A DNA stretch of 50,872 nucleotides from Nanobdellota archaeon (GTDB taxonomy: Archaea > Nanobdellota > Nanobdellia > Woesearchaeales > JAHWHD01): NCBI GenBank assembly GCA_034722435.1, contig JAYENX010000005.1:1-50872 (forward strand). Reading direction: 5' to 3'. The notes beneath the pieces were generated by a model. That model worked only from the letters and a program-made list of their open reading frames with translations, had not been told where the DNA came from and searched no databases. Position 1 is the stretch's first letter. The number at the start of each line of letters is the position of its first letter. The position numbers and the translations under genes are program-made. Shown here in pieces: positions 1-34,500 of this stretch.

Positions 1-3000
1 TCTCCTTCAGCACCAACAACTCCGTGCTCAATAAGCTTTCTTCTTTCATCAATATCGAACCATGCCAGTTCAAGAATTCTAGCTTTTTGTAACAGTTCTA
101 ATTCACTATAAGGGTTTATTGTACTTTTTTCATAAGTTCCATCTTCTTTTATAGGTCCGAGGACTCTACCATTTTCAAAACCTATTAGATGTGCTTTTCT
201 TAACGCCTTTGTTTCCCTTTCAGTAATTTTTCTATTTAAAACAATTGCAGCTTTTTTAGCTAATTCTTTTTCTTCATGATTTTTTACAACAAATATTACC
301 CATAAAGATTTTAATTTTTCATTTTCAATTGGAAATTCTTTTTCCCATTTTAAAGCTAAACTTTCAAATAATTTATTTGCTCTGCTAAGTTCATTATAAT
401 TCAATTGTGATAAGCTCTTTTTAAATTCTAAAACTGTATCACTTATACTCTTTGTGTCAACACCGTACAAATGTGCAACTCGTAAAGACGCAGTTTCAGA
501 TACCTCTAAATCATATATCGGTAAAAGCTTTGCATTTAATATTTCGTCTATAATTTCGTCTTCATTACCTATAACATCCATTTCTCCTAAATTTTGGAAA
601 TATCCTTCAATACTCGAATCGTAGCCACCCACAACAAAATGAACGTTTTTCATTCCTTGCGGGTTATTAAGTAACCACTCAAGTTCACGCGCAGTAGCTC
701 CTGCCTCAGAATGTGTGAATATATTTGAAGGAACAAAAAATACTACTTCTTCCTCCCGCTTAACTAATTCTTGCATAAACTCTTCTGTTTTTTCATCTGT
801 ACTTAATTGGAACCAGCTCCTATAAGCGTCTATCCAATTCCAATGACTACCTAATAATGAAAGTTCGGTATATGGACTTCCTGTTAATCCTAAGGATACA
901 CCTTGACTTTCCGCTTCTCCACTTTTTAATGCTTGCAAATATTGATATAAAGTCATCACACCTCGAGAATTCTGTTGCATTAGATTAATTTGATTAACAT
1001 CTATTCCAGTTTTACTTATCTCAGATTCAAGGTTTAATTCTAGTAAAGATATTTGATTATTCTTATCATCAACACTAACGCCCTTTCCACCCATCCTCAA
1101 CATCAATTCATTATCACTAAAATCTAAATCTCTTAATGTCTGAACTCTATCATCAGAATCTACTAATACCTTTAATTGTCCTTCATCAAGTGTAGGGAAG
1201 TTAGCCCTTAGAAAACCCTCTCCAAGTCCATTATACCACTGTTCTATTTCAGGCGTTATAGAAAAGTCATTAACAACATCAAATAGTGTAGCTGGTTTAG
1301 TATCGCCAATTTCATCTGCAATATCTTCAACCACATTATTTATTTCTTGTTTAGGTTCTATTTTTTCTAGTGCCAACACAACCTGTTCCTTCACTAAACT
1401 ATTTTTATCATCTAATGATCTAGTTAACTGTTCAGTTGCTCTATTATCGCCTATATTACCTAATGCTTGCGCAGCATACATTCTCTCTTCCCATTCACCA
1501 TATCTTAATGATTTAGTTAATGGTGTTATTGCCAACTCACCCATATTTTCTAGACTCTTTATGGCTTCTTGCTTTATTGTTAAATCTTCTTTCGCAATTA
1601 TTTTTTCTAACGGTTCTATTCCATAATTTCCTAAAGTTCCCAACTCATTAACAGCATTCTTTTTTTGCTGTTCTATATTAATAATTCCTGTAATTCCCAT
1701 GATTTTTTTAAACGTGCTATCCTCAAAAACGCTCTCTAATTCTTTTATTTTTTCTATAATTTCTGAATAAGTTTGCCCTTTAGAATTTGTGGGCATTTTC
1801 ATCTCACCTTTATTAATCGCAATGAATTCTTCTTTAGTTATCTCGCCTGCGTTAAGTAAATCATTAATAAATGAGAAATCATCATACTTTATTTGGCTAT
1901 TATAATAGACTGCTTCCCATAATCTTACATTCCTTAAATTATCATTTTTATAATCTGATATTGGATCTGGATGGATGATTGCTCGTCCAAAATCAATTAG
2001 TCTCGGCTCATTACCTTTGACTAATACTTGTTCATTATGAAGATCATTATTGCGAATTCCTTTTTCTCCCATTTCCCTAACAATTTCATCTAGCTTAGAA
2101 TAAAATTCAGGACTAACTGTTCCTGCCTCTTTTAAAGTAATTGTATCTGCAAAGTACTCTAATAAAATACCTGCAATTTTTCCTTGGGAATAATCATAAA
2201 TCAATTTTGCTGGTCTTGGAAAAAACCGTTTATATTCTTCAGGCATTTCTTCTTGAATAGTTTTTAACATATTGTATTCATGATCGAGTTCAAAATCTTT
2301 TTTATATTCATTAGGCGTTTTAAGAATATATTCTAGTCCTTTCTCATCTTTAACTAAAAAAGTATTTACTCCCCCTTTAGTGTACCACGCAACTATATTG
2401 TCATCTTTTTTAACACCCTCTAATTTAGTTTCTGCTTTAAGTGCCCGTATTAAATCAGGATACTTAGAATACTCACTATCTAAATTTTCATTTCTTATCT
2501 GTTGATTTTCAATATCTTTAACAAGCTCAGTTAATCCTTCATCCTTTACTTTTTGTAAATTCCCTAGTTGATACAACATATCATTTTTATTTTCTACATT
2601 AAGATTTATTATTGCATCAACATCATTAATTTTCATTAAAGCATACATTGCATTTATAGAACCTTCATTAGCAAATTGACTAAGTATTTGTACTGCCTTT
2701 TTATCCTTTATATTGCCTAATGCAGCCATTGCAATATGTCTAATATATTCATCTTCGTTAGATTCAACGATTTTAATTAAAGAATCAACTGCCTTTGATT
2801 CCTTAATATCTCCCAGTATTATTGCTGCGCCCGTTTGAACATATTTCTCTGGACTATTTAATGCATCTAATAGATATGGTGTACTTTTTTTACCGTGCTT
2901 ACTTAACGCACGCATCACTGGGTATTCGCCTGTTAGAACTTGATCAGATGTTAGAGTACTAAGTAATTCTCCTAACTCGGCTCTAGCTCTATCGCTATCA

Positions 3001-6000
3001 ATTCCTCCTAAACCTTCAATAGCAATTCTTTTCATCTGTGAAGGTTCTTGCGTATCTTTAATAATTGAGACTAAAAGATCTAATGATCTTTCATCTTCAA
3101 GTTCATTCAAAAGTTTTAGCAATTTTAATCTTCCGTAACGATCATTATCTTTATTTTTAATATGCTCTATTATCTCTGGTACTGCACCACTGGCTAAATT
3201 TTCTATTTGTTTTAACATTCTTAAACTATTAATCTCGTTGTAATCAAAATGCTTAACTAATATTGGCGCTGCAACATGCCCAATCTCTGCTAATTCTTCA
3301 ATAGCATCCCATTTTTGTTGGTCTCTATCAATTAATCTTAATCGATCTAATATATTTTTAAATACAGTATCTTCTAAAATACTGTCAAGCTCCTTAACCC
3401 TCTTCGCCACATCAACAGAAACCTCTCCCTCAACATCAACTCTCTTCCCACCCATCCTAATCAATATTTCATTATCACTAAAATCTAAATCTCTTAATGT
3501 CTGAACTCTATCATCAGAACCTATTAAGACTTTCATCTGAACTTCGGTCAGTGTGGGGAAGTTAGCCCTTAGAAAACCCTCTCCAAGTCCATTATACCAC
3601 TGTTCTATTTCTGGTGTTATTGTTGGAATAGTGCTAACTGATTCGGTTAGTGTTTGAGGTTTATCTTCAACTCCTGATATAAATTCTACACCTTCAAGTT
3701 TACCGCTCGCCATAGACTCAGATATAGTTTCTAATCTTTCTACATTATATTCGTTTATATCGTCTGTGTGGATAACGCCAAGAGCATCAACATAATATAA
3801 CAAATTAGATTTAGGGGCTGACAACTTAATTTGCTTATCTCCGTTTTTATAAACTTTAATACCTTTACTTTGCAACTTTTGCATCAACCTTTTTGCAGCA
3901 AAGTTTTGTGCAGTTGTACTTTCAACGTCTTGTGTATATAATTTATCTTCATTAAAAACCATAACAAAATTATTATCTGAATCATATAATCCGTGCGCAG
4001 TCTTAAATCCAATCATTTTGTTATTAGAATCATATAACCCTATCAATAACTGTGAACTATCACCTATAAAACCCATTAAGGCCTGAGAATAGCTTGACGC
4101 TCTATCACACTTTTGACAATTACCTTCGCTAGATCCTCCCGGACCATAATAACCTACGTGCAACGCATCTTCAAGCGAAGTTATAACTTTAGCAGTGGCA
4201 GTAGTTACTTCACTATTAACCCTTGCTCGTAAAACATTATTCAATAATGCAATAAAATCTCCATAATACTCTCTTGCTTCAGATTTAGATGTTGCTTTTT
4301 GTAAGTCCAATATTTTATTACTTAGACTTCCAATATCAAATTCAGATTTTATACTTTCTAATTCACTTAACATATCTTTTTCAACTAAACCATTTAAATT
4401 TTCGATTCTTTGTGCAATATCTTCAGATTGTTTAATCGTTGAGTAATACCCCGGTATTTTTTCAAGTATAGTTAATTGAGCTATAACCCCTGGAAGAATA
4501 TTTTTAATACTTTTTTCTTTAGAACTTGATAAAATCTTTTCAAGATCTTTCTTTTTTTCTTCAACATTATCTAGCGTAATATCGCTTACTGTATGTTTAA
4601 CTTCATCATTATCAATTCTTTCCGCTAAATATTTAATTTTCTCAACAATACCTGATTCGATATCCTTTTCTTCAACTTCTTTTCCAATTTGACTTTTATG
4701 CTGATGCATACTTGAAATTACTGTAGAAAAATATTCTGCGTATATATCGCTTCTATCCCTGATAGTTACAGTTTCAGATAACTCGCGAGCATTGAATAAT
4801 GTTTCATACAATTCATCAGGAATCTGTTCCTTGGAATTTTTAAACTTCTCTTTCCATAAACCTTCTTTCCCACCCTTTACAAATGCATTCATCAATTCTT
4901 TAAGTCTTTTTAATGCATTAGCATTATCTTGATATGTCAATACCAGAGTTACTGCATCAACTATAAAATCACTATTATCTAAAGCATGTGCAAAATCATT
5001 ATGAACTTCATCGCCCCCTATATCATACATTTGAAGTATTTTATATTTCATACTCTCTGCAAATAATTTTTCAGGGTCTTCCGATTTTAAAACATTCACA
5101 CTCTCTTCCAAGCTCAAATATCCACTATCAATTAAATTTAACATTACTGGCACTAAACTAAAAAAGTTTGAATTTGTTATAGAATCAAATAATACTTTTC
5201 TTCCTTCATTAAATTTTAAAGATTTAGTTAATGCTTCGATTATTTGTAACTTTTTTGCATTAGATTTAATTTTTCTACCTTTTTCAATAAAATCTAATCT
5301 ATCATTCTTTTCAATTTTTGAGAGCAAAAAGTCATAAACAAATAACCATCCTTTCTCTTTCGAATTAAACGAAACTAGTTCAGATACAATCTCTCGTGAA
5401 ATTCTTGAATCAGCAATAAACATATTTTGTATAACGTTTTGCATAAATATTTCATTATTCTTACTAATACCTCTTGCATGTAATGCTACTATTGGTAATT
5501 TTAAGATTGGATGAAGTTCATCAGGCAATGATGCATAAAACTGTCCTAATTCATGTTCTGGGTTTTTAGATGCAAGATTTAAAACATCACACATTACATC
5601 TTTTACAATAAAAGGGTCTGTTAACATCTCTATTAATGGTTCTATTGCACTTTCATCTCCAATCTTCGCTAACGAATTTACTACAGTCCGTCTTACATCT
5701 GAATTCTCATCTTTTAATGCTTGTATTAGTGCAGGCACTGCAGGTTTTCCTATTTCCACTAACGCCTCTCCCGCACTTTCTTTTACATCTGAATCCTCAT
5801 CCTTCAATGCTTGTATTAGTGCAGGTACTGCAGGTTCTCCTATCTCTCCTAACGCTCCTGCCGCATATGTTCTTACAGCTGAATTCTCATCTTTTAATGC
5901 TTGTATTAGTGCAGGTACTGCTGTTGAATCTTTTATCTTTCCTAACGCCCCTGCCGCATTCCTTCTTACATGCCAATTCTCATCTTTTAATGCTTGTATT

Positions 6001-22545: not shown

Positions 22546-25500
22546 CATTTTATCTCTTCTTTTATTTTAACAACGTTCTCTATAATGTTTGCAGTCGGTT
22601 GTATACCTATATGTTGTATCTGCTGACTGACTAATACAGAACTTCCTACAGATATTTCTTTATACTCTTTAGCAATTTCAATAACTCTTTTGAAATCAAC
22701 AGGTCTTCCCCCTTCTGCAAAATCTGTTATGAGATCTGTTTTAGAATTTGGATGTATCAATTTTAGATTCGATTCTTCTGTTATTAGCTTATCTAAAGCA
22801 ACATCCTTTTTAAATGTTTTAATAATTTCTTCTAAATTATTAACTGGCTGATTATCGGATAATTGAACCACTAGTTGTTCTATGCCTACCCCTATAAGCC
22901 CAGACTCTTTAGGTTTATAGATTCCTTCTTGTTGGAATATCTTCTTTAATAATCTTATTTGTTCTGCAATAAACTCTTTTGCAAGTTCTTGGTCGTTTGG
23001 CGAAAGTTTACTAACTATGTTATCCATTTGTCCTTCAAACCCTTGTTCTGTTCTATATAGATGAGTTGTATCTAAACTTAGTTGTCTTTGATTTCTTATG
23101 GTTACATCTATGCCAGTTATTTCATTATTTGCTCCATAACTTCCATCACTCTGTACTCCGTATACGCATCCACCACTACACAATCTTAAGAAAAATGTGT
23201 TACCATAATCTTCGCTTCCCGCAGGTCTTTGATCTAATTGAAGTTTCACATCATTACCATATATTTCTTGCAATTTCTGTTCCAGACTAGGAATAATTGC
23301 CCTTAGAGTATTTTCACTTTGTAAAACGCCTGACTCGCTTCTTAGTAAGAAATCAAAATCCCCTGGCATTCCTTGGCTAGATGGAACATACGTGTGCGAA
23401 GCTGATGAACCCGTTGACCAAACTTCCGCAGTTGCAAATGCTGTACTTAATGTTTGATGTATTTTTGATTCTAAATCACTGACTCGTCCCTTACTAGCTT
23501 CAGTCAAAGTAACTGTTGAAAGCAAAGCACCAGATTCTTTAATAGGTGCCGATTTTATAATTTCTTTTTCAACTTGAACCTCTGCTCCTAATTCTTTATT
23601 AATCTCATTTTCTAAAACATTCATAATTTCTGGATTCGCATCTTGATAATATAACAATTCAATCCTTTTTTTGTCTGGATTATATTGTTCAATTCTCAGA
23701 ACAGGATTATCACTTTCAATATCTTCAACAGCTAACATTATTTTATTACGTACATCTAATATTATCCGTACTACACCATCCTTGGCCATACTTGCATCGA
23801 ACTCTAATCCTATCATCGGAAAACCGAGAAGTTCTTGATCGCCTTGCTTAATTTTCATATTGATTCCTTCTTGTCTAAACTCATATCCAGGTATTTGTAT
23901 GTTTCCATTTAATAATTTATCAAGAACTTTAGTTTTTAATTCAGATCTAATATTTTCCCCTACTAATATTCCTTTAGCATCTTCAAACGTTAGTTCATAA
24001 CTTGCTTCTTCAACTTGACCTTCTTTAATCATTGTTGGAACAAGCTTTCCTGCTTTTACAGATGAAATACTAAATTCTATTAGTTTCATTGCAGATGAAT
24101 CACTCATGGAAATTTTTGTTAAACTTCTTACTCTTCCAACACCGCCCCCTATTGGAATTCCATCATCAGTGGCTGTTTTATACACCTCCTCTAATAATTT
24201 ATTAAAATCTCCAAACTCGGCTATTAAATTTTGAACATCTTGTTCTCCAATATCTTTAATGTTATGCCTCGTAAATAAAGTATTAACCATTGCTACTTCT
24301 GCATTTACAGGATCAACAATATTTGATTGAAGATTTTGTTTTCCATTAATTAAACTTGTATCCAACATATCTTGATTTACTTGTCCGGTATTATCTTTTA
24401 CTAACTTAATTTCTTTAATCATGTCAAAGTCAATTAGTCCTTTAAAGTTTAATTCTCTATCTTGATATTTTTTAACTTGGCCAGGTGTTACATATCCTAC
24501 AACATTCTCAGGATTATAATCTTCAATTACAATTACTACTCCTACTTGATTATCTAATAAATTTTCAAGGGCGAACTTTTCAGCAACCTCATCAGAAATA
24601 GATGATGACATAAATACAGTATCTTCAGGGTCTTGTTGTACGTGCTCTTCAAAAGCTGCTCTCTCGCTACCTGCTTCAGCTCCTGCAATTGATTGAGCTT
24701 TTGCAATTCGTTGATCTACGAATCTCGAAATAATCTCAGGATTCGTAATACCTGTACCTATAAACGCTCTTGATGTTATAACGCCTTGATCAACTAATGT
24801 CTGCAATTCATTTAATGTTAGTCTCATACCTCTATACAATGTTTTTGGTTTTCTATATGTTAAATCTTGATTCATACCAAGCATCACATTATTTACAAGA
24901 CCGGCAGCACTTTCATCATCAAGATTTTTTATATTGTCAATTAATCCAGGATTAGCTTCTAACACTTTAACTTGTGATTCAATATCTAAATCTCTTAAAA
25001 TAGTAAACAATCTGTTGGCATTGGTAAGGTCTGTTGTATATAATCTCATACTTAAAATACTTAATTTTTGTACTGCCAAAATTTTTTCATCGATTTTTGT
25101 CCCTTTACCTTGTAATCTGTCCATAATATTTAATTTATTCTTTTCTTTTTCTAATTCTTCCAGCATGAAATTAAGCAAGGTAAACCTGCTACTTCCTGAG
25201 ATGTCTTCACCAACAATGAAATCAGGATGTTCAACTTTTTGTTGGGCCTGATAAGCTTCATAAGCCGCCTGCGTTTCAGCAGTTACAGGCACACCTCCTG
25301 CTCTTATCGCAATATGATTCACTGTTAACTCTTCATCTTTTCCTAGTAAAGTAACTATTCTTAAATCTGAAGGGATATCCCAGAGCTCTTCTCTTGTTTC
25401 AAAAATCTGTCCTTCTCCAATCATTCCTTTAAAATTGTCTGCAAGGAACGGTTTGAAACTATCATCAGGATTTTCTATGAACTTTGCCAATTTTCTCAAT

Positions 25501-28500
25501 CCCTGCGGAGCTTCTCTAAGTTTCTCAATACCTCTTCTTATTACAACAAATTCATCCTGTAATTCTAGTGGCACACCATCTATCTTCGCAATCGCTTCAT
25601 CGTACTTATCTTGTTGAAGTAACCGTCCTACTTCTGATGTGATATCGCTTATTACTTTATTTTTTGCAACTTCAAACGATTTATCGATAAATGATAATAA
25701 ATTTTCCATATTTGTTTTCAAATAAGTATAGTCTGCATCAGCCATTTCAGATTCTTGATTTAGATTATTTAATATATCTCGATAAATTTCAGTATTCAAA
25801 TATTGTTTAGGTATAAATTCAGGCATTACATCAAGTAAAGCATTAACAGTATCACTCATTTCAATAAAATCGCGTTTTGCTTGTTCTTCTTCAAGACTTA
25901 GCTCAGGTTCAAACACATCTGAAAACTTGAAAATATTAGGATTATTCTCTTGCATACTTGCATACAACCTTGATTCCTGTTCATCATTTGCTCTAGCAGC
26001 ATCTTTCGCATCCACTCTAGCAGCAACACCTTCTGCTGTATCAACACTAGGTAAATCAAGACCCTCTCTAGCGTTCGTAAGGAACATTATACCCTCCTCG
26101 GGTGTTGTCTCCAAAAGTTTTGCTTTTATCTTTTCATCTTCTGAAACTTCAGGTTTTTCAGCTTCTTCAAGTTTATCTTTTAATTCTTTACTCAACTCTT
26201 CATATATCTCAAGATCAGCCTCTAAATCATCAGTTACTGCCGGAAACTCGTCTTTGAAAAGCTCATTACTTCTATCTAAGGCCATTCTTTGAAATTTTGC
26301 AGCATCATCCCATAATTGTATCGCCTTATCCAGTTTACCTTGTCTATTCAATTCTGATGCTTCCTTGTTTAACGCATTAGCTTTTATTTCCAGATTTACT
26401 GCTTGTGAAAAAGAAAGTAATTCATTTAAGAAGAATTCTAAATCATTAAATTGTTTTACTAATCCTTGAACTTTACTGTTAAATTCTACTTCTCCGAATA
26501 TTTCTTTTAACCCACTATCTTCAAGTTTAGCACTTATGAAATCTTCTGCATTCGCATATCCAAGTTCCCCTGATGCAAGTTTTCTATATATTTCAAGTTC
26601 AGCATTGAACTGCGCAATTCCTTTGTCGGGGTCGATGTGATTTAATTTAATTAATTGTTTAGATACTTCATATGGATTAGGTAAATAACCTTCTGTAACC
26701 CCTCCTTCAAAATCAATAAGCCAAACATTTCCTTGTGAATCTTTAAGATAATTACCTATATTTCTATCAATAATATAATTTCCAAGTCCGTCATATATTT
26801 CAACAGGACTCGCAAGTAAAACTGAAACTAGTGACCCTGACACTTTCTTTACATCTGCTGAACTAACTTTTTGAAGATTTGGAATGTACCTTGAGAACAA
26901 ATATTTTGTTCCTTCAATCTCTCCGTATACTAAACCAGGACTTGCATATCCCATTAACCTTGAAAATTCAGATCCAAGTATTTCTCTACTCATTGTCTCG
27001 GCTATAGTTTCTTTACCTATCAACAAATCACCATTTTGGTCAATTATTAAAGGTCTTCTAAGAACTTTTCCTGCACGGCTATGTAAAAAGAAATATGCAC
27101 CATCTACTTCTTCAATTGTTCCAGATTCGATTCCTTGTTGTACCATTTCCTTAGCAATAGGGTTGGCGTTTATCTCTGCAGCAGAAGTTATCGGTTCTAA
27201 TTCTTTATAGTTTATTGGTTTAGAATATTTATCAATCAAATCTTCAAGTTCAGGTTTTTCTATAATCTCTTCTTCTATAACTGGTCCTTCTACTTCTCTT
27301 TTACTTAACTGAACAAACCTATTCATAAGATCTTCATGAACGCTAGTCTTTAGTTCATCCGGTAATGCCGAAAGATAATCAACCATTCCTGTCGCTTCTT
27401 CATTTGTTAAACCGTCTCCAATTAAATCAACTAATGAGGTTCTTATACTTCTTGAAAGAAGATAATCTGATTGTGTTCTTGCTGTTAATACTCTAGTAGC
27501 TGAAGCAAGCTCCATTTCAGGTACAATATTTTTATCCACTGCATTTGCAACTACTGATGGGAGATTCCTTACAACCTCTGGAGCATCTTCCCCGCCTATA
27601 AATTTAATTACTGTTTTAAATCCATTATCTGTTAATACTCCGTTTTCTTTATTTAATTCCTGTAACTTCTGAACAACAATGCCTCTTCTATAGTCTCGTT
27701 CAGCTCTAAACCAGTTTTCTTCAGGACCTTTATCGTCAAACTCCGAATACGCACTAGCAATTTTAGTTTTTACAAAATATCTTGCAGTTTCTAATCCTCC
27801 GCCTTGTTCAACTGGAAGCATTGCAATAGCTTGCGCAACAACAACAGTTCTTTCACTCACTCCTAGCCTTGGATCAAGTTCTATTTGTGTAAGACCTGAT
27901 AAAGCTTGTACTTCTTCCTCTATAGATGGATTTTCTTGATTAGCTAATACTTGTTCACCTAATATAAAATTAAATTCATCCTCTCCTTCAGGCTGACCTC
28001 TTTCATCCCATACATTTGCGGCAATTGGCTTTCTTAAGTCAAGCTCACCAACTTCAATTGCAGATTTTTCTTCTTGAGTAAACTTAAAACCTTGTCCTAT
28101 AAATATTGAGGAAACAGGAATTTTTTCTTCTTCTTTTCCTTCTTCAACTTCAACTTTTTCATCTACCTCAGGTTCAGCTTCTTTTTCTATTTCTTGTTCA
28201 GCTTCAGTATCTGCAGTCGTTTCAACTTCTTGCACGGCCTCTGGTCTGCTTAATGGCTCGCCAGAAGTTTCAATAGGTATATCATCTTTACCTGTCGTCT
28301 CTCTAGTAATTCTGGCAACATCTTGTATAGACTGGGCATCAAGCAACGACTTTTTCCCTTCTAATGAAGCGCTACCGTCTTGTAACTCGAGACTGATCAG
28401 TTTACCATCTCCTATCATATTATCTAATATCGCTAACGACTCAAACGATAATTTTGATCTGATATTCGCATAGTCTCCTTGTCCATTCCTTACATTTTTC

Positions 28501-31500
28501 AAGAATTCAAGAGCACTGTTTAATCTATCCTGTAGATATTCTTCGCTGCTTCTATAACTTTTAGCCCCTACTGTTAAATCTTGGCCAGCCTTTACTTGCC
28601 ATTTACTTAATAATTCAGTGACATGTCCAGGATCTGTACTCAGACCCACTGCTGCACGTTCAGCCGTGCCTATATCTCTTATGGCTCTTGTAACAATATC
28701 TGAATACGCCCCTTCAATACCTTTGAGATTATTTTCTTTTTGGATCTTTTGCTCGTTTTGTCTTGCAATTCCACCTTCTGCAACCATATCGGCTAACGAA
28801 GTTCCAGTATCTGCTCCTAAAATAATTAAATGTCCGTTTGAATATTCTTCGCCGAACAAATTCTGCGACACACCTTTACCTCTATCTCTTAACCTTGCTT
28901 GTTCAATATCTGTAAACGTCGAACTTCTATCAGCCACTACAAACATATCTTCTGCAGTACCTCTTATTGCCAGATCGGTTCCAACATCTCGTCCTTTCTC
29001 ATATATTTTAACCAATCTAGGTCCTGCTTCATAATTTCTTGAGTTAAGATAATTTTTAAGTTTCCCTATATCTTCGAAATTTTCTTTTGAAACTTCTGTA
29101 CCCGCAGCATCATATTTTACACTTTCATAATTTCCGTTAGCCCTTACAAATATAACTTCTGAAGGATTACCTTTACCGACTTCCAGTTCTAATATTTTAG
29201 CCACAGCTAAAGGATTTGCCACCCTATCAGATGCAACAACCCACGTATGGTCTTTATTTGAATCTTGAGCAAGCCCTTCTAAAGACATCCCATTAACATT
29301 ATTAGCAACATTACTATCTACAAACTTTTCTTTTCCGCCTAAGAAATCAGTTGCTGTCTCGCTTCTAGTACTAACTCCAAGATTTCTTGCAATTTGATTC
29401 TGTACAAGTTCAGGAGTTCCTGAAAAACCATATACTTCTGAAAAAACGTCTGCAACCATCTCTTGAGTGGTTGTCTGTCTACTATCTAAACTAACTCCTG
29501 CTTTGTTCCAATCTGCTTCACCAATTGTAGTTGGATCTGTTGCAATTGATTTTAAAACATCCCTGCCTAACAATTCATAAGCAACAACTTCAGCTACAGA
29601 ACTATAATGTCTTCCACTATCTCTACCTTTACTTCTTGGAACAACTTCTCCCTCTTGTATTCCGTAATCAGTTTCTGGAGTCTCTGATAATACTCTTTGC
29701 ATAATATTTAGCATATTAACATCTTTAGCTAAACTAGGATTATTTACAACTTCAAGTTTAATTAATTCTTCAAGGTCGGCATTTGCGGGAACATTCACAT
29801 TATGTTTCGCGGCGAGTCTTAAATATAATGCATTTCTAATATCTTCTCTTAACTCTAAATCTTTTTTATTATTTTCAGTAAGCATACTCTCTCTGTCCAC
29901 TATACCTTCAAGACCAACTTGCTTTGCCGCTGAGTCAAGTAACCCTTTCAAAGACTCACCAACAGCTTTTTGCTCTTTTCCATTTTCAAGACTATTTATT
30001 GATTGTCTTGCTCCTTCTGTCATAGAATATCTGCCCATTAATTCAAGAGTACTTTGAGCTTCATCAGCTATTAATGCACTCCCTTTTCCAGATTTAAGAT
30101 TATCAATAAATCTCTTAGATTGAGACGTGGTTTTTACAAATTCAAAAAATAAATCTGTGTCAGCAATTATCACATCAGAATCTCCTTTAGGGTTCGCAGA
30201 ATCAAATACTTCTGCCGTTAAACCTTGTTCTGTAAAGAATTCTAAATTTTTCCCAATTTCCGGGAGCAGCTCGCCCTCGACACTTCCTTTCTTGAACAGA
30301 AGAACAACTTTCTTCCCGCTCATCTTAGATTTTAAAGCTGCTGCAAATGGTATCATTACGGACGTTTTTCCAGAACCTGCTTTAGATTTGAATATTCTGC
30401 CGTCAGTTGTTAATGCTTCTAATATAATTTCTGCTTGATTATCATTTGCAGTGTAGGCTGCTCCGACTGCTTTTCTTTTAGCCACGGTTGCAGCTTTCAT
30501 AATTTTATTGGCAGTTTCTGTAAGTTTCTTTACACTCTCTGAAGCACTCTCTGAAGCTGTGAGGAAATCCCCTTTAACTTCAAATGTTCCATCTTCATTT
30601 TCAATTAGTTCAGGTTTTGCATCAGCTTTACTTATCACAACACTGCCTGTGTTTATAGAATTTCTTAACTGTGCAAACTCTTCTGAATTATAACTTTCAG
30701 TCACTTGTTCAGTTTCCACACTTGATTCATCCTCAAACATACTATCATATTCGAAAACATTTGCATTATTTATGCGACTCGCTAAACCTCCTGTTTGAAT
30801 ATAATCTCCTTTAGCTAGTTGCCTTAAACCATGTTTAGCTCTGAAACTGGATATTTTTGCAATTGCATCTCCTGTTTTCAAAGATATTAATCTTGCAGCA
30901 ACCCTATCAGTTGTAGCTGCAGGAACCTCAATTTTTATACGATTACTATCACTTAAATATAAATTATTGAACTTTTGTCTCAAAGTTTTCAGCCCGTTGA
31001 GAAGATCATTTACATCAATCTTTCCTGATTCATAATCGCCGCGTAATCCTGAAGCTTTTAATGCAATACTTTCTAAGTAACTTGAAGGGTGCATAGGAAG
31101 AACTTTATTATCTGGATCTCTCATACCCTGAATTTCTTTTTTAAATTCACGAACCTCTTCTTGTATTTCAGGACTTTTGAACTTATTTCCCGCCCAGTCA
31201 AGTAATCCATTATCAATAGTAACCTCGTGCTTAATTCTTGCTTTTATTTCCTCCATTGTATCTTTATTAATTTTTTCAGAAGCTACTGCCACTTCAGGAT
31301 TATTTAATTGAAGTTCAATCTGTGCATTATCTACAGTTTCAATATCAGACCTTAGAGTTGCAGGTAAACCTTTCTCTTCATCAACTAGAGCAGTTTCTTC
31401 TCCTTTAACTTCAAAACCTTTACTTTGTTTTTCTTGCAATATTTTTCTTATTCTTGCAATATTATCAAGATTTGCTGCAAGTATACTTTTTTTAGCATCA

Positions 31501-34500
31501 AGGTTAGGATTATTTTCTGCATTATCCGCGGCCCTTTGTAGATTTGTAAGTTCCATATCTATTTTATTATTCAATCTTGCTTCATCAGCTTTTGTAGCTT
31601 CGTCCCCTGTTAAAGTTCTTGTTTGATCTTGTAATTGCATGTCTAGTTCAGTCATGGCATTTACATATCTGCTGAACCCGTCTCTACCTTCAGCAACTTT
31701 CTGAGTTTCATCTTGTTGCAACTTTTCTTTATTTTGTTCAAGTTTTTGTGCTTTATCATCTAACAAAGCTTTGTTCTGTTCCAAAGCTACAACTTTATCA
31801 TTTTCTCCAGCATCTTTTGCAGCATCAATTTGGGTACTAAGTTGGTTTACTTTACGATTATTATCTTCAATTAACTCATCAACTAACCGTTTATTTTCGC
31901 TTTCCATTTGGAATAATCTCTGCGTTCCCTGTTTAAGTTCCTGAAGTTTTTGTGTGAATTCATTACCTGTAGAAGTTGCTGCTTCACTTTCAAGCTGGCT
32001 AATTTCTTGTTCAAGATTTCTTGCAACTTTATTTTCCCATGCAATTTTTGCTTCGGCAGATGTTGCTACAGCTAAACTATTTGCTACCCCTCTTAATGTT
32101 GAACCGTCCCCTTGTCTGAAATTATCGAGTAAAGTATCTCTCTTAAACAATGTTTCAGAACTTGTTTGAAGATTTTTCATTCTATCATATTTTATACCAT
32201 CTACCGTAACAGTTTCAACATATGAGTATCTATTATTTACGGGGTCCGAATAAACTTCGCCACGTTTCAGAAGTATGGTTTCTTCACTCTTATCATTATC
32301 TCTGTCAGCGATTCTGTCGCTAGCTTCAAGGATGTCCTCGTTTAATTTCTGTGTTGCATCATCAACTGTCTTAAAATTCTGTTCAATCAAAATTTTCTTT
32401 TTAAGATTTAGTAAGTTTTGTCTGTTATAAAGCGCATTCACATCTTGAGTTAAAGCATTAATCTCTACATTTAACGAAAATAACCATTGCGCTTTTTGTT
32501 CATCATTAAGATCATCTCTTTTTTCAACTGATTCTTTATCAAGTTTAAGTTCAACCAGCCTTTGGTTCAAATCATTTATTTCTGCATTTCCTGCGTCACC
32601 TTCCCTTCTAGCTTCCCTTATTTGTTTTACTTGGGTAAGGTGCTCATTTTCCGCATCATCTAATTCTTCTCCGTTATCTACTTTTTGCAGAAATTCTTGT
32701 TCAAATTCTAAAGCTATTGCATAACTCTCTGCATCTTCAATTTGTTTATCAACGCTATTAATTCCCCTCTCAGCCTGTTTGAGTTTTTCCTGGTTTTCAT
32801 CACTTGGATTCTTCTTAAACTCTTCTTCCGCATTATTTCTTTCTTCTTCTCTTAGTTGTCTTTTATTATTTAATTGTTCTACCCTATTCTTTTCATATGC
32901 TAATTCTGCAGAAGAAATATCTCTATCTATTGAAACAGTATCGTGCCCTTTTATTTTTTCAGATTCTCTTTGTTTTTCTAAAGATTTAAGTTCATTTAAT
33001 CTTCTACTAGTTTCAAAATCTGTAGCAGCAATTCCATCTCCTTCATCTTGTGCAATCTTTGCCTGTTGAGAATTAATATCTGCTAACTTTTGATAATTTT
33101 CACTTTGCCCACTTAACTTTTCTGCAATCTTTGCTTTTCCTCTTACAGTGTCCGCATCTTGTTGTACAGTTTGTCCAATTGCTGATTGTTCACTTTGTAT
33201 TTTTATTACTAATTCATCTTTAGAATTTTGAAGATTCTCTTTAAATTCTTTAGCCAGTCCTTTTTCTTTTGCCTGTTCATAAACTTCATTATCGATAACT
33301 ACAGGACTTATTCCTGCTGCCGCCAATTCTACTCTATTATCTTGACCTTTTATATTTTGTATTGCTGCCTGCATATCTCCTAAGAACATGTTGTTAAGGT
33401 CGTGACTAACAATACCATTAGTAACAAATTTGGCTCCGCTTTTCAGTTCGTTCATTACAACGGCAGGATCCGCGCTAATTCTTACACTAACACCATTTGT
33501 TCTTTGTAACATTGCATCTCCATACACACCGCTACTTATCCTGGTATTATGTGTACTTTGAGCATTTCTTTTAACCTTAACATCACTATTTAATTTAATA
33601 TCAATATCAAATTTATCCCCTTTTAATTGCTTATAAAAATTAACCAAATCATCGCCTATACCATCACTTCTTGCACCGGGTTTTCTATCAGACCTTATGG
33701 TGATGCCTGCTTGAGATATTGCTTGCTCAGCAATATCTTCCCAAACTTCGTCCCATGCTTCGCCTGTTGGACTAAGCCATTCTTTAGGATTATAAAAAGT
33801 TGTAGAAAATTTCATATACTGTTTTAAACCTTCTGTCCATGCTTGTTTAGATGTTAGTTGACCGGTTAAAGAACTAACCGTTGGCACTTCAGCAACTCCT
33901 ATATATTTAGAAAGTCCAAGTTTCGCACCAACTGAACTATGTGCGAGCCATCTAACAGGTGTAGAGAACGCATAAAGCTGAGCCATTGCACCAACGCTGC
34001 CCGCAGTCTGTTCAGCTATACCTTTCATACCTTCAAAATTATCTTGCCAGTCAAGGGTATTCTGTAAACTATCATCTACTCCTTTGTATTTTTCAGGGTT
34101 TAACAAAGCAGCATCTTTAGAAAATTCTCTAGCAGATGTATAATCTTTATACACTAAAGCTTCATGTACTTTTGACATTTGAAGATCTGCAAGTGTACGC
34201 TTTTTATACTGTTCAAGTTCAGACCTTTTTTGTTCAATATCGGATTCAATATTTTTTCTTTGAGGGTCGTTTACTGAAAGCGATGCCAAGTTTTTAATTT
34301 TATCAGATATACTTTTTTCTTGTATTTGTATGCCTTGGTTTCTTGAAAACTCTCTATAACTTGGGTTAAGCATCATTGCTTTTTCATGTAAAGCTTTCAA
34401 ATCAGTATTTGCGATATTTTCCCCTTGTCCACGCGCAATCGCAAGTTCTTCTTTATTATTTTGTAATTCAATTATGAGTGAACTTTTATCTTCAAGAGCT

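Follow-up and report, generated by a model that had tools for sequence, protein, structure and literature searches.

A probable, very diverged SecA-type ATPase module inside a giant protein of a Nanobdellota archaeon

The subject of this report is a giant protein encoded by a 50,872-nucleotide contig of a Nanobdellota archaeon (JAYENX010000005.1, assembly GCA_034722435.1), the whole of which is hereafter called the window. Its gene, designated P0001, is a single uninterrupted open reading frame (ORF) of 5,427 codons on the minus strand (22542-38825) in a genome of 33% GC, and the product has 5,427 amino acids. A region in the middle of this protein, residues ~2765-3533 (window ~28227-30533), is considered to be a very diverged ATPase module of the SecA type, and the probability of this assignment is put at about 0.8. 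According to the predicted structure the module is composed of a DEAD-like first nucleotide-binding domain (NBD1) with a clamp resembling the preprotein cross-linking domain (PPXD) of SecA between motifs II and III, a second RecA-like domain and a long scaffold-like helix. The catalytic residues are intact in P0001, and the K, E, Q and R among them are invariant across the family. The assignment is carried by profile comparison (hhalign) and by structural comparison with Foldseek and VIA-align. As regards function, the module is tentatively taken for a polypeptide motor, a role to which slightly less than an even chance is given.

Extent and motifs of the module

The borders of the module follow from BLAST against its relatives, with whose giant proteins P0001 shares this region and nothing else. 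In the initial annotation of the window a SecA-like translocase was placed at 28500-30450, which was right as to location, the true extent being somewhat larger. All motifs listed there were found again, between 28872 and 30446, in the order typical of superfamily 2 (SF2) and SecA proteins.

All features of the module lie on the minus strand and are described here from its N-terminus. The first part (30054-30533), recognised with hhalign, comprises an N-terminal helix and the first half of NBD1 with a conserved glutamine and Walker A (KAGSGKT, 30363-30383, residues 2815-2821); Q48, G70, K71 and E173 are invariant in it. Walker B (ADEAQS) follows at 30051-30068 (residues 2920-2925). Between motifs II and III, a position which follows from the family alignment, there is a PPXD-like insert of 209 amino acids (29427-30053). 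It contains the motifs DYGIQEGEVV (29640-29669) and GRDSGRHYS (29601-29627), and its block DYG..G.V.PR..GR..GR.YS (29601-29669) is conserved better than any other in the family. Motif III (GFSGTPE, 29409-29429; GMTGTA in SecA) lies in a region that matches the SecA profile with E 2e-5.

The second RecA-like domain, NBD2-like in its predicted fold (28797-29408), bears GRDVGTD (28974-28994) and EQARLRDRGKG (28872-28904), with G529, T556, Q560, R564 and R566 invariant. Directly after it a helix of ~50 residues resembling the scaffold helix of SecA is predicted (28647-28796, model residues 595-644), then comes a helical C-terminal part recognised by its conservation in the family (28275-28646), which ends at the conserved TGKDDIP, and the module is closed by an acidic linker of low complexity (28026-28226). 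Neither a SEC-C zinc motif nor a SecB-binding tail was found: residues 1-5000 of P0001 hold no cysteine at all and the module ends in the acidic linker.

Similarity of the module to SecA

When the family alignment was compared with a profile of 42 public SecA sequences, hhalign gave a probability of 96% and E 3.9e-9 over 330 aligned columns, the alignment beginning at the N-terminal helix of SecA, taking in both Walker motifs and the insert in collinear order and reaching motif III. Residues 1-180 of the 701-residue piece, compared separately with this profile, matched with 94.6% and E 6.9e-8, the SecA N-terminal helix included. An early run had used a template of three SecA sequences, one of them from an unpublished genome (G333), and gave 91.7% and E 7.7e-7; with that sequence removed the match dropped to E 0.015. 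Because the small template proved so fragile, the profile was rebuilt from the 42 public sequences.

The structural comparison points the same way. The module was modelled up to residue 3450 (window 28476) as 701 amino acids with a mean predicted local distance difference test score (pLDDT) of 69. In the Foldseek search with this model the top 23 chains were all SecA or SecA2 (E 2e-11 to 5e-7, TM 0.40-0.50), followed by RIG-I-like helicases at E 2e-6 or worse and TM ~0.26. The best structural match is the SecA2 of Mycobacterium tuberculosis (4uaq), and identity to SecA in the structural alignments is 12-16%. VIA-align gave Z 14.3-16.7 for SecA with 420-556 residues aligned and Z 14.1 for DinG with 326. 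The margin in Z is thus modest, and the extra 100-230 aligned residues are, in the predicted model, those of accessory domains. The alignments with SecA also run through the long helix predicted after NBD2, to chain residues ~720-820, a part modelled with moderate confidence and with no signal in sequence. The second RecA-like domain with motifs V and VI is present in the predicted fold, a feature common to all SF2 proteins and not specific to SecA. No wing domain is evident in the module model; the SecA2 of M. tuberculosis is not known to have one either.

The insert was also folded alone (209 amino acids, pLDDT 70.7, pTM 0.71). A search of 48,161 chains made independently of Foldseek ranked first a chimera of maltose-binding protein and the SecA PPXD (5k94, Z 6.5) and second the PPXD region of the SecA2 chain 4uaq (Z 5.2). 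Among the candidates taken from Foldseek, nine chains reached Z of at least 5; all were SecA or SecA2 (Z 5.7-6.8), the next chain having 2.9, and they align on PPXD residues (for example 226-349 of the Bacillus subtilis protein) over ~120 residues at 3.8-4.8 Å. Foldseek run on the insert alone returned no significant match, with SecA chains near E 0.8. From these comparisons of profile, whole module and insert, the module does not appear to be a generic SF2 helicase, and the SecA-like character proposed in the initial annotation, which had set against it a generic SF2 helicase with no PPXD-like insert, is borne out by the results given above.

Relatives and conservation

The family is small. 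An exhaustive HMMER search of 1.84 billion cluster-representative proteins gave 14 matches, all of them giant proteins or fragments thereof, and when 400 other genomes from the phylum were searched, four had a match to the module, the longest of the ORFs concerned having 12,045 amino acids. Relatives with names belong to Woesearchaeota-like archaea and to Candidate Phyla Radiation bacteria (CPR; Gottesmanbacteria, Parcubacteria and Beckwithbacteria), and they are annotated as hypothetical proteins or DEAD/DEAH helicases. Wider searches for relatives added nothing: the family alignment compared with longer proteins found none, and a four-sequence alignment returned only two loci already known.

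In the alignment of eight sequences, with an overall identity of 20-35%, invariant positions include G-K in Walker A, E in Walker B, G and P in motif III and Q/R/R in motif VI. The order and spacing of the motifs are kept in the seven aligned relatives, so the set of motifs is more than a product of chance. The Walker A lysine and the Walker B D-E pair are retained in P0001 and in six of the seven relatives, with the Walker A threonine present in five of the six (L003 has PASGKT). The remaining relative, from a genome of the same order as the source genome (G058; L007:1489-3771, minus strand, within an 11,421-residue ORF), has GGGKD in Walker A and ANEAQ in Walker B instead of GxGKT and DEAQ, and, judging from these letters, may be an ATPase-dead or altered copy.

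In a genome of the same genus as the source genome (G438, 89% complete) the queries used found no SecA-like module and no canonical SecA; if this absence is real, both would be accessory genes gained or lost within the genus. In Candidatus Gottesmanbacteria (LCOY01000013.1, L013:1-14823) the module-bearing ORF of 2,940 amino acids overlaps both of its neighbours, an upstream ORF containing a Hint domain of the polymorphic-toxin kind (PT-HINT) and a downstream ORF of 3,148 amino acids with FHA and YscD-like domains. Gene calling may have split a single giant gene into these overlapping ORFs, and the Hint domain hints at autoproteolytic processing.

SecA-type ATPase or helicase

Several results weigh against the assignment. 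Curated SecA models (Pfam SecA_DEAD, SecA_PP_bind, P-loop_SecA and SecA_SW; NCBIfam TIGR00963 and PRK12904) are silent on P0001 in hmmscan and in genome-wide family searches with E up to 10, in the same kinds of search in which the true SecA of this genome scores 386-937 bits. NBD2 and the C-terminal helices give no sequence-profile signal of SecA in hhalign. When the comparison is confined to motifs I-II, significant matches to the family profile come from generic SF2 helicases too (the DEAD-box, Hef and XPD helicases of the genome; SLH1 and Cas3 of the PDB), so that this stretch is not specific to SecA, and as single-sequence templates the DEAD-box and Hef helicases of the genome outscore its own SecA. 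The insert taken alone is not significant against the SecA profile (hhalign E 0.18-0.28), and in the null for the insert profile, made of 314 ORFs of the source genome, scores had a median of 13 and went up to 21.2. The best local match of the insert to SecA does sit at the collinear DY..G.V...GR..GRR.S position; the PPXD similarity pointed out in the initial annotation is therefore correctly placed, but is not significant on its own, and the assignment of the PPXD rests on predicted structure. Both structural models, in turn, are of moderate confidence (pLDDT ~70) and were built from the alignment of eight sequences.

These observations lead to the question of a nucleic-acid helicase or translocase of SF2, XPD/DinG-like or RIG-I-like with an accessory insert, which would be delivered as an effector and would owe its likeness to SecA to the common ancestry of DEAD motors. 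This is held to be rather unlikely, but it is not without arguments. Searches with the single sequence in Pfam, NCBIfam and PDB returned weak matches to DEAD and ResIII or none, those of Pfam to the module being only of this weak kind. With the family profile, the leading PDB sequences were SLH1 and Cas3, matched over motifs I-II, and SecA followed only at E 0.27. The nearest ESM Atlas clusters belong to DEAD/ResIII/Helicase_C_2 families (0.89), all scores there being below 0.9 and hence serving as leads only. XPD and DinG share with the module two RecA-like domains and also carry an accessory insert between motifs II and III, and the Z of DinG comes near to those of SecA.

On the other side, the insert folded alone resembles, at the level of a model, the PPXD of SecA only, the alignments with SecA are longer than those with any helicase by the 100-230 residues mentioned, and the SecA profile match reaches the SecA N-terminal helix and motif III. 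The module is free of cysteine and so has no iron-sulphur cluster of the XPD type; Pfam gives no DEAD_2 or Helicase_C_2 match on it, and the XPD of the same genome aligns to the family over 42 columns only, around motif II. In the match lists of the insert model no Arch domain occurs and only the PPXD matches stand out, although a missing entry in a list proves nothing.

Possible function of the module

Giant proteins of Woesearchaeota-like DPANN archaea and of CPR bacteria, dissimilar in all else, have the module as their sole common part, and from this it is concluded that it is a service module rather than cargo. As a motor, it would bind polypeptide and not nucleic acid and would use ATP to move the chain of the giant protein itself through a membrane channel. 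Two versions of this mechanism can be considered. In the first, the chain would be pushed out through the SecYEG of the producer, as proposed for bacterial giants; in the second, the C-terminal enzyme domains would be reeled into a partner cell once the module has reached ATP there. Both versions are regarded as roughly equal in likelihood.

The motor reading draws on the strong conservation inside the PPXD-like domain, which holds the family's best conserved block, and on the neighbourhood of the gene as well. Two ADP-ribosylglycohydrolase genes, 20733-21716 and 21709-22545 (both on the plus strand; Pfam E 5e-71 and 8e-06), run towards the giant ORF, and their end coincides with its stop codon. 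The products may be putative immunity proteins against an ADP-ribosyltransferase cargo domain of P0001, and their place at the 3' end of the giant gene suggests a cargo dangerous inside a cytoplasm, which fits cargo that acts there and was counted for the motor.

Some facts sit uneasily with such a motor. Apart from its N-terminal signal, P0001 has no membrane anchor, and there is no ATP outside the cell. No second match of the module was found anywhere in the source genome, from which it follows that the two other giant ORFs of the window are without it and that the module is no general requirement for giant proteins here. Given the GKD and NEAQ motifs of the G058 relative, ATP hydrolysis may also not be universal in the family.

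The last point belongs as well to the view of the module as a structural relic, in which a fold derived from SecA would serve as a rigid spacer or a platform for binding and ATP turnover would no longer be needed. The G058 copy has lost the canonical Walker A threonine and Walker B aspartate, the divergence from SecA is extreme at 12-16% identity in structural alignments, and the predicted location is extracellular, where ATP is lacking. Such a relic is nevertheless improbable, for the Walker A lysine and Walker B D-E pair persist in P0001 and six of seven relatives, and the G/P of motif III and the Q/R/R of motif VI are invariant at an overall identity of 20-35%.

A further proposal is that the protein acts as a host-directed effector which, inside the partner cell, would dock on the SecY of that cell and jam it or drive ectopic export, its own chain not being moved. 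The SecA-like architecture with its predicted PPXD would suit this role, most archaea, the likely hosts, possess SecY and are not known to have a SecA, and the module is fused to cargo that probably acts in the cytoplasm, with the immunity-like ADP-ribosylglycohydrolase genes next to it. However, there is no sign of parts that would contact SecY, no wing domain being evident in the model, and the module occurs also in giants of CPR bacteria, whose likely bacterial hosts have a SecA already; little probability is accordingly left to this proposal, and a motor that moves the chain of the giant itself is preferred to it.

The giant protein and its genome

A hydrophobic signal-like segment (MRTISLLLIIILVMSTVSFAAEG, 38733-38801, minus strand) near the N-terminus is the only part of P0001 that exceeds a Kyte-Doolittle value of 1.6, the threshold applied; the whole protein was scanned and no further stretch above it was found. 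The reading of this N-terminus as a signal peptide was made by inspection only. Several relatives differ from P0001 in having internal hydrophobic segments upstream of the module. The initial annotation placed the module N-terminal to all recognisable catalytic cargo; downstream of it, however, an HMM search gave only a weak match to a nucleotidyltransferase palm (E 0.094), and three segments compared with PDB sequences had no match, so that this statement could not be confirmed.

An ORF of 254 amino acids (38825-39586, minus strand) overlaps the start codon of the giant ORF and begins in pilin-like fashion, with KKGQ ahead of a hydrophobic stretch. Its family has 5-12 matching places per genome, and a member lies upstream of the module-bearing giant on the same strand also in G168 (C43:4523-5254) and G058 (C13:36417-37082), the former being the best hit in its genome (E 1e-29).

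The source genome is DPANN-like, with a size of 1.3 Mb, ~33% GC and a completeness of 94.5%. Its small subunit rRNA scores 1395 bits with the archaeal model and 1057 bits with the bacterial one, and the same assembly carries a thermosome gene and an archaeal-type glutamyl-tRNA synthetase (GluRS).

Canonical SecA in the same genome

The general statement of the initial annotation that archaea lack a housekeeping SecA does not hold for this genome. Contig C50 (62 kb, with the same GC as the genome) encodes at C50:20119-22626 (minus strand; L027:8120-10627) a complete canonical SecA of bacterial type with 835 amino acids, which scores 937 bits with the NCBIfam secA model at a cut-off of 814 and bears each of the four Pfam SecA domains; the archaeal-type GluRS is encoded on this contig too, along with a thermosome subunit, SRP54 and FtsZ. 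The best of its listed matches is 59% identical and the other listed ones are SecAs at 45-53%, those with names being bacterial. Unlike nearly all of the listed relatives, it has no SEC-C motif. A single SecY is present in the genome (C58:21484-22608).

SecA_DEAD was above the cut-off in 4 of 151 genomes of the order, a tally that counts the source genome and the unpublished G333, and it was not found in three other module-bearing archaeal genomes (96-100% complete). Some genomes with the embedded module therefore have a canonical SecA as well, and others do not.

Comparison with known systems

Embedded SecA-like motors are already known in giant bacterial proteins, and the archaeal case is a variant of this known pattern. 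In giant proteins of Omnitrophota and Actinobacteriota, diverged SecA DEAD and preprotein-binding domains were described which are distinct from the normal-length SecA of the same genome and are reported to be without scaffold and wing; their proposed role is export of the giant itself (West-Roberts et al., bioRxiv 10.1101/2023.11.21.568195). Here also a protein of several thousand residues harbours a diverged motor of the SecA type, which includes a part for preprotein binding and is separate from the normal-length SecA of the genome. The present case differs in its archaeal host, in a module that Pfam SecA models do not detect, in a single N-terminal hydrophobic segment as opposed to the many transmembrane helices of the bacterial giants, and in an apparent scaffold-like long helix, predicted here and reported missing there; the closest relatives of the P0001 module are found in DPANN archaea and CPR bacteria. 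No report of a SecA-type motor embedded in an archaeal giant protein was met in the literature searched.

Canonical SecA and SecA2 (for example B. subtilis 1TF5, M. tuberculosis 4UAQ and the C50 protein) have in common with the predicted structure of the module the order of NBD1, PPXD between motifs II and III and NBD2, after which the module has a predicted long helix that may correspond to the one in SecA; Walker A and B, a GxxGT motif III and motifs V and VI are shared too, and there is homology at profile level over NBD1. It differs in its identity of merely 12-16%, in not being a stand-alone protein, in the missing SEC-C zinc motif and in being unmatched by curated HMMs. Secondary SecA_DEAD proteins encoded by separate genes linked to type I secretion-like proteins are described from some Planctomycetes, Verrucomicrobia, Proteobacteria, Nitrospirae and Chlorobi (Kamneva, Poudel & Ward 2015, PMC4452313). 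These are likewise diverged ATPases derived from SecA and not housekeeping SecA, whereas the P0001 module is fused inside an archaeal giant and no such cassette was seen beside the giant gene. SecA-like helicase-related domains are also listed among the effectors of Amoebophilus (PMC3482391).

Significance

In the debate on how material passes between DPANN archaea or CPR bacteria and their hosts, which is not settled, the giant surface proteins of these organisms are among the first to be suspected. A bold extension of the present findings would be that both groups, the ultra-small episymbionts of the two domains, share a horizontally exchanged, self-contained injection device, in which a SecA-derived motor in a giant secreted protein pulls its own enzyme cargo into the host cytoplasm with no dedicated secretion system. 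We consider this unlikely. A conserved and apparently still active SecA-type motor common to the giants of both groups offers a concrete and testable handle on the question. SecA-derived motors do occur in archaea: giant proteins contain them as embedded modules, and the present genome has in addition a complete canonical SecA that was acquired horizontally. The textbook view of archaea as devoid of SecA is thereby qualified.

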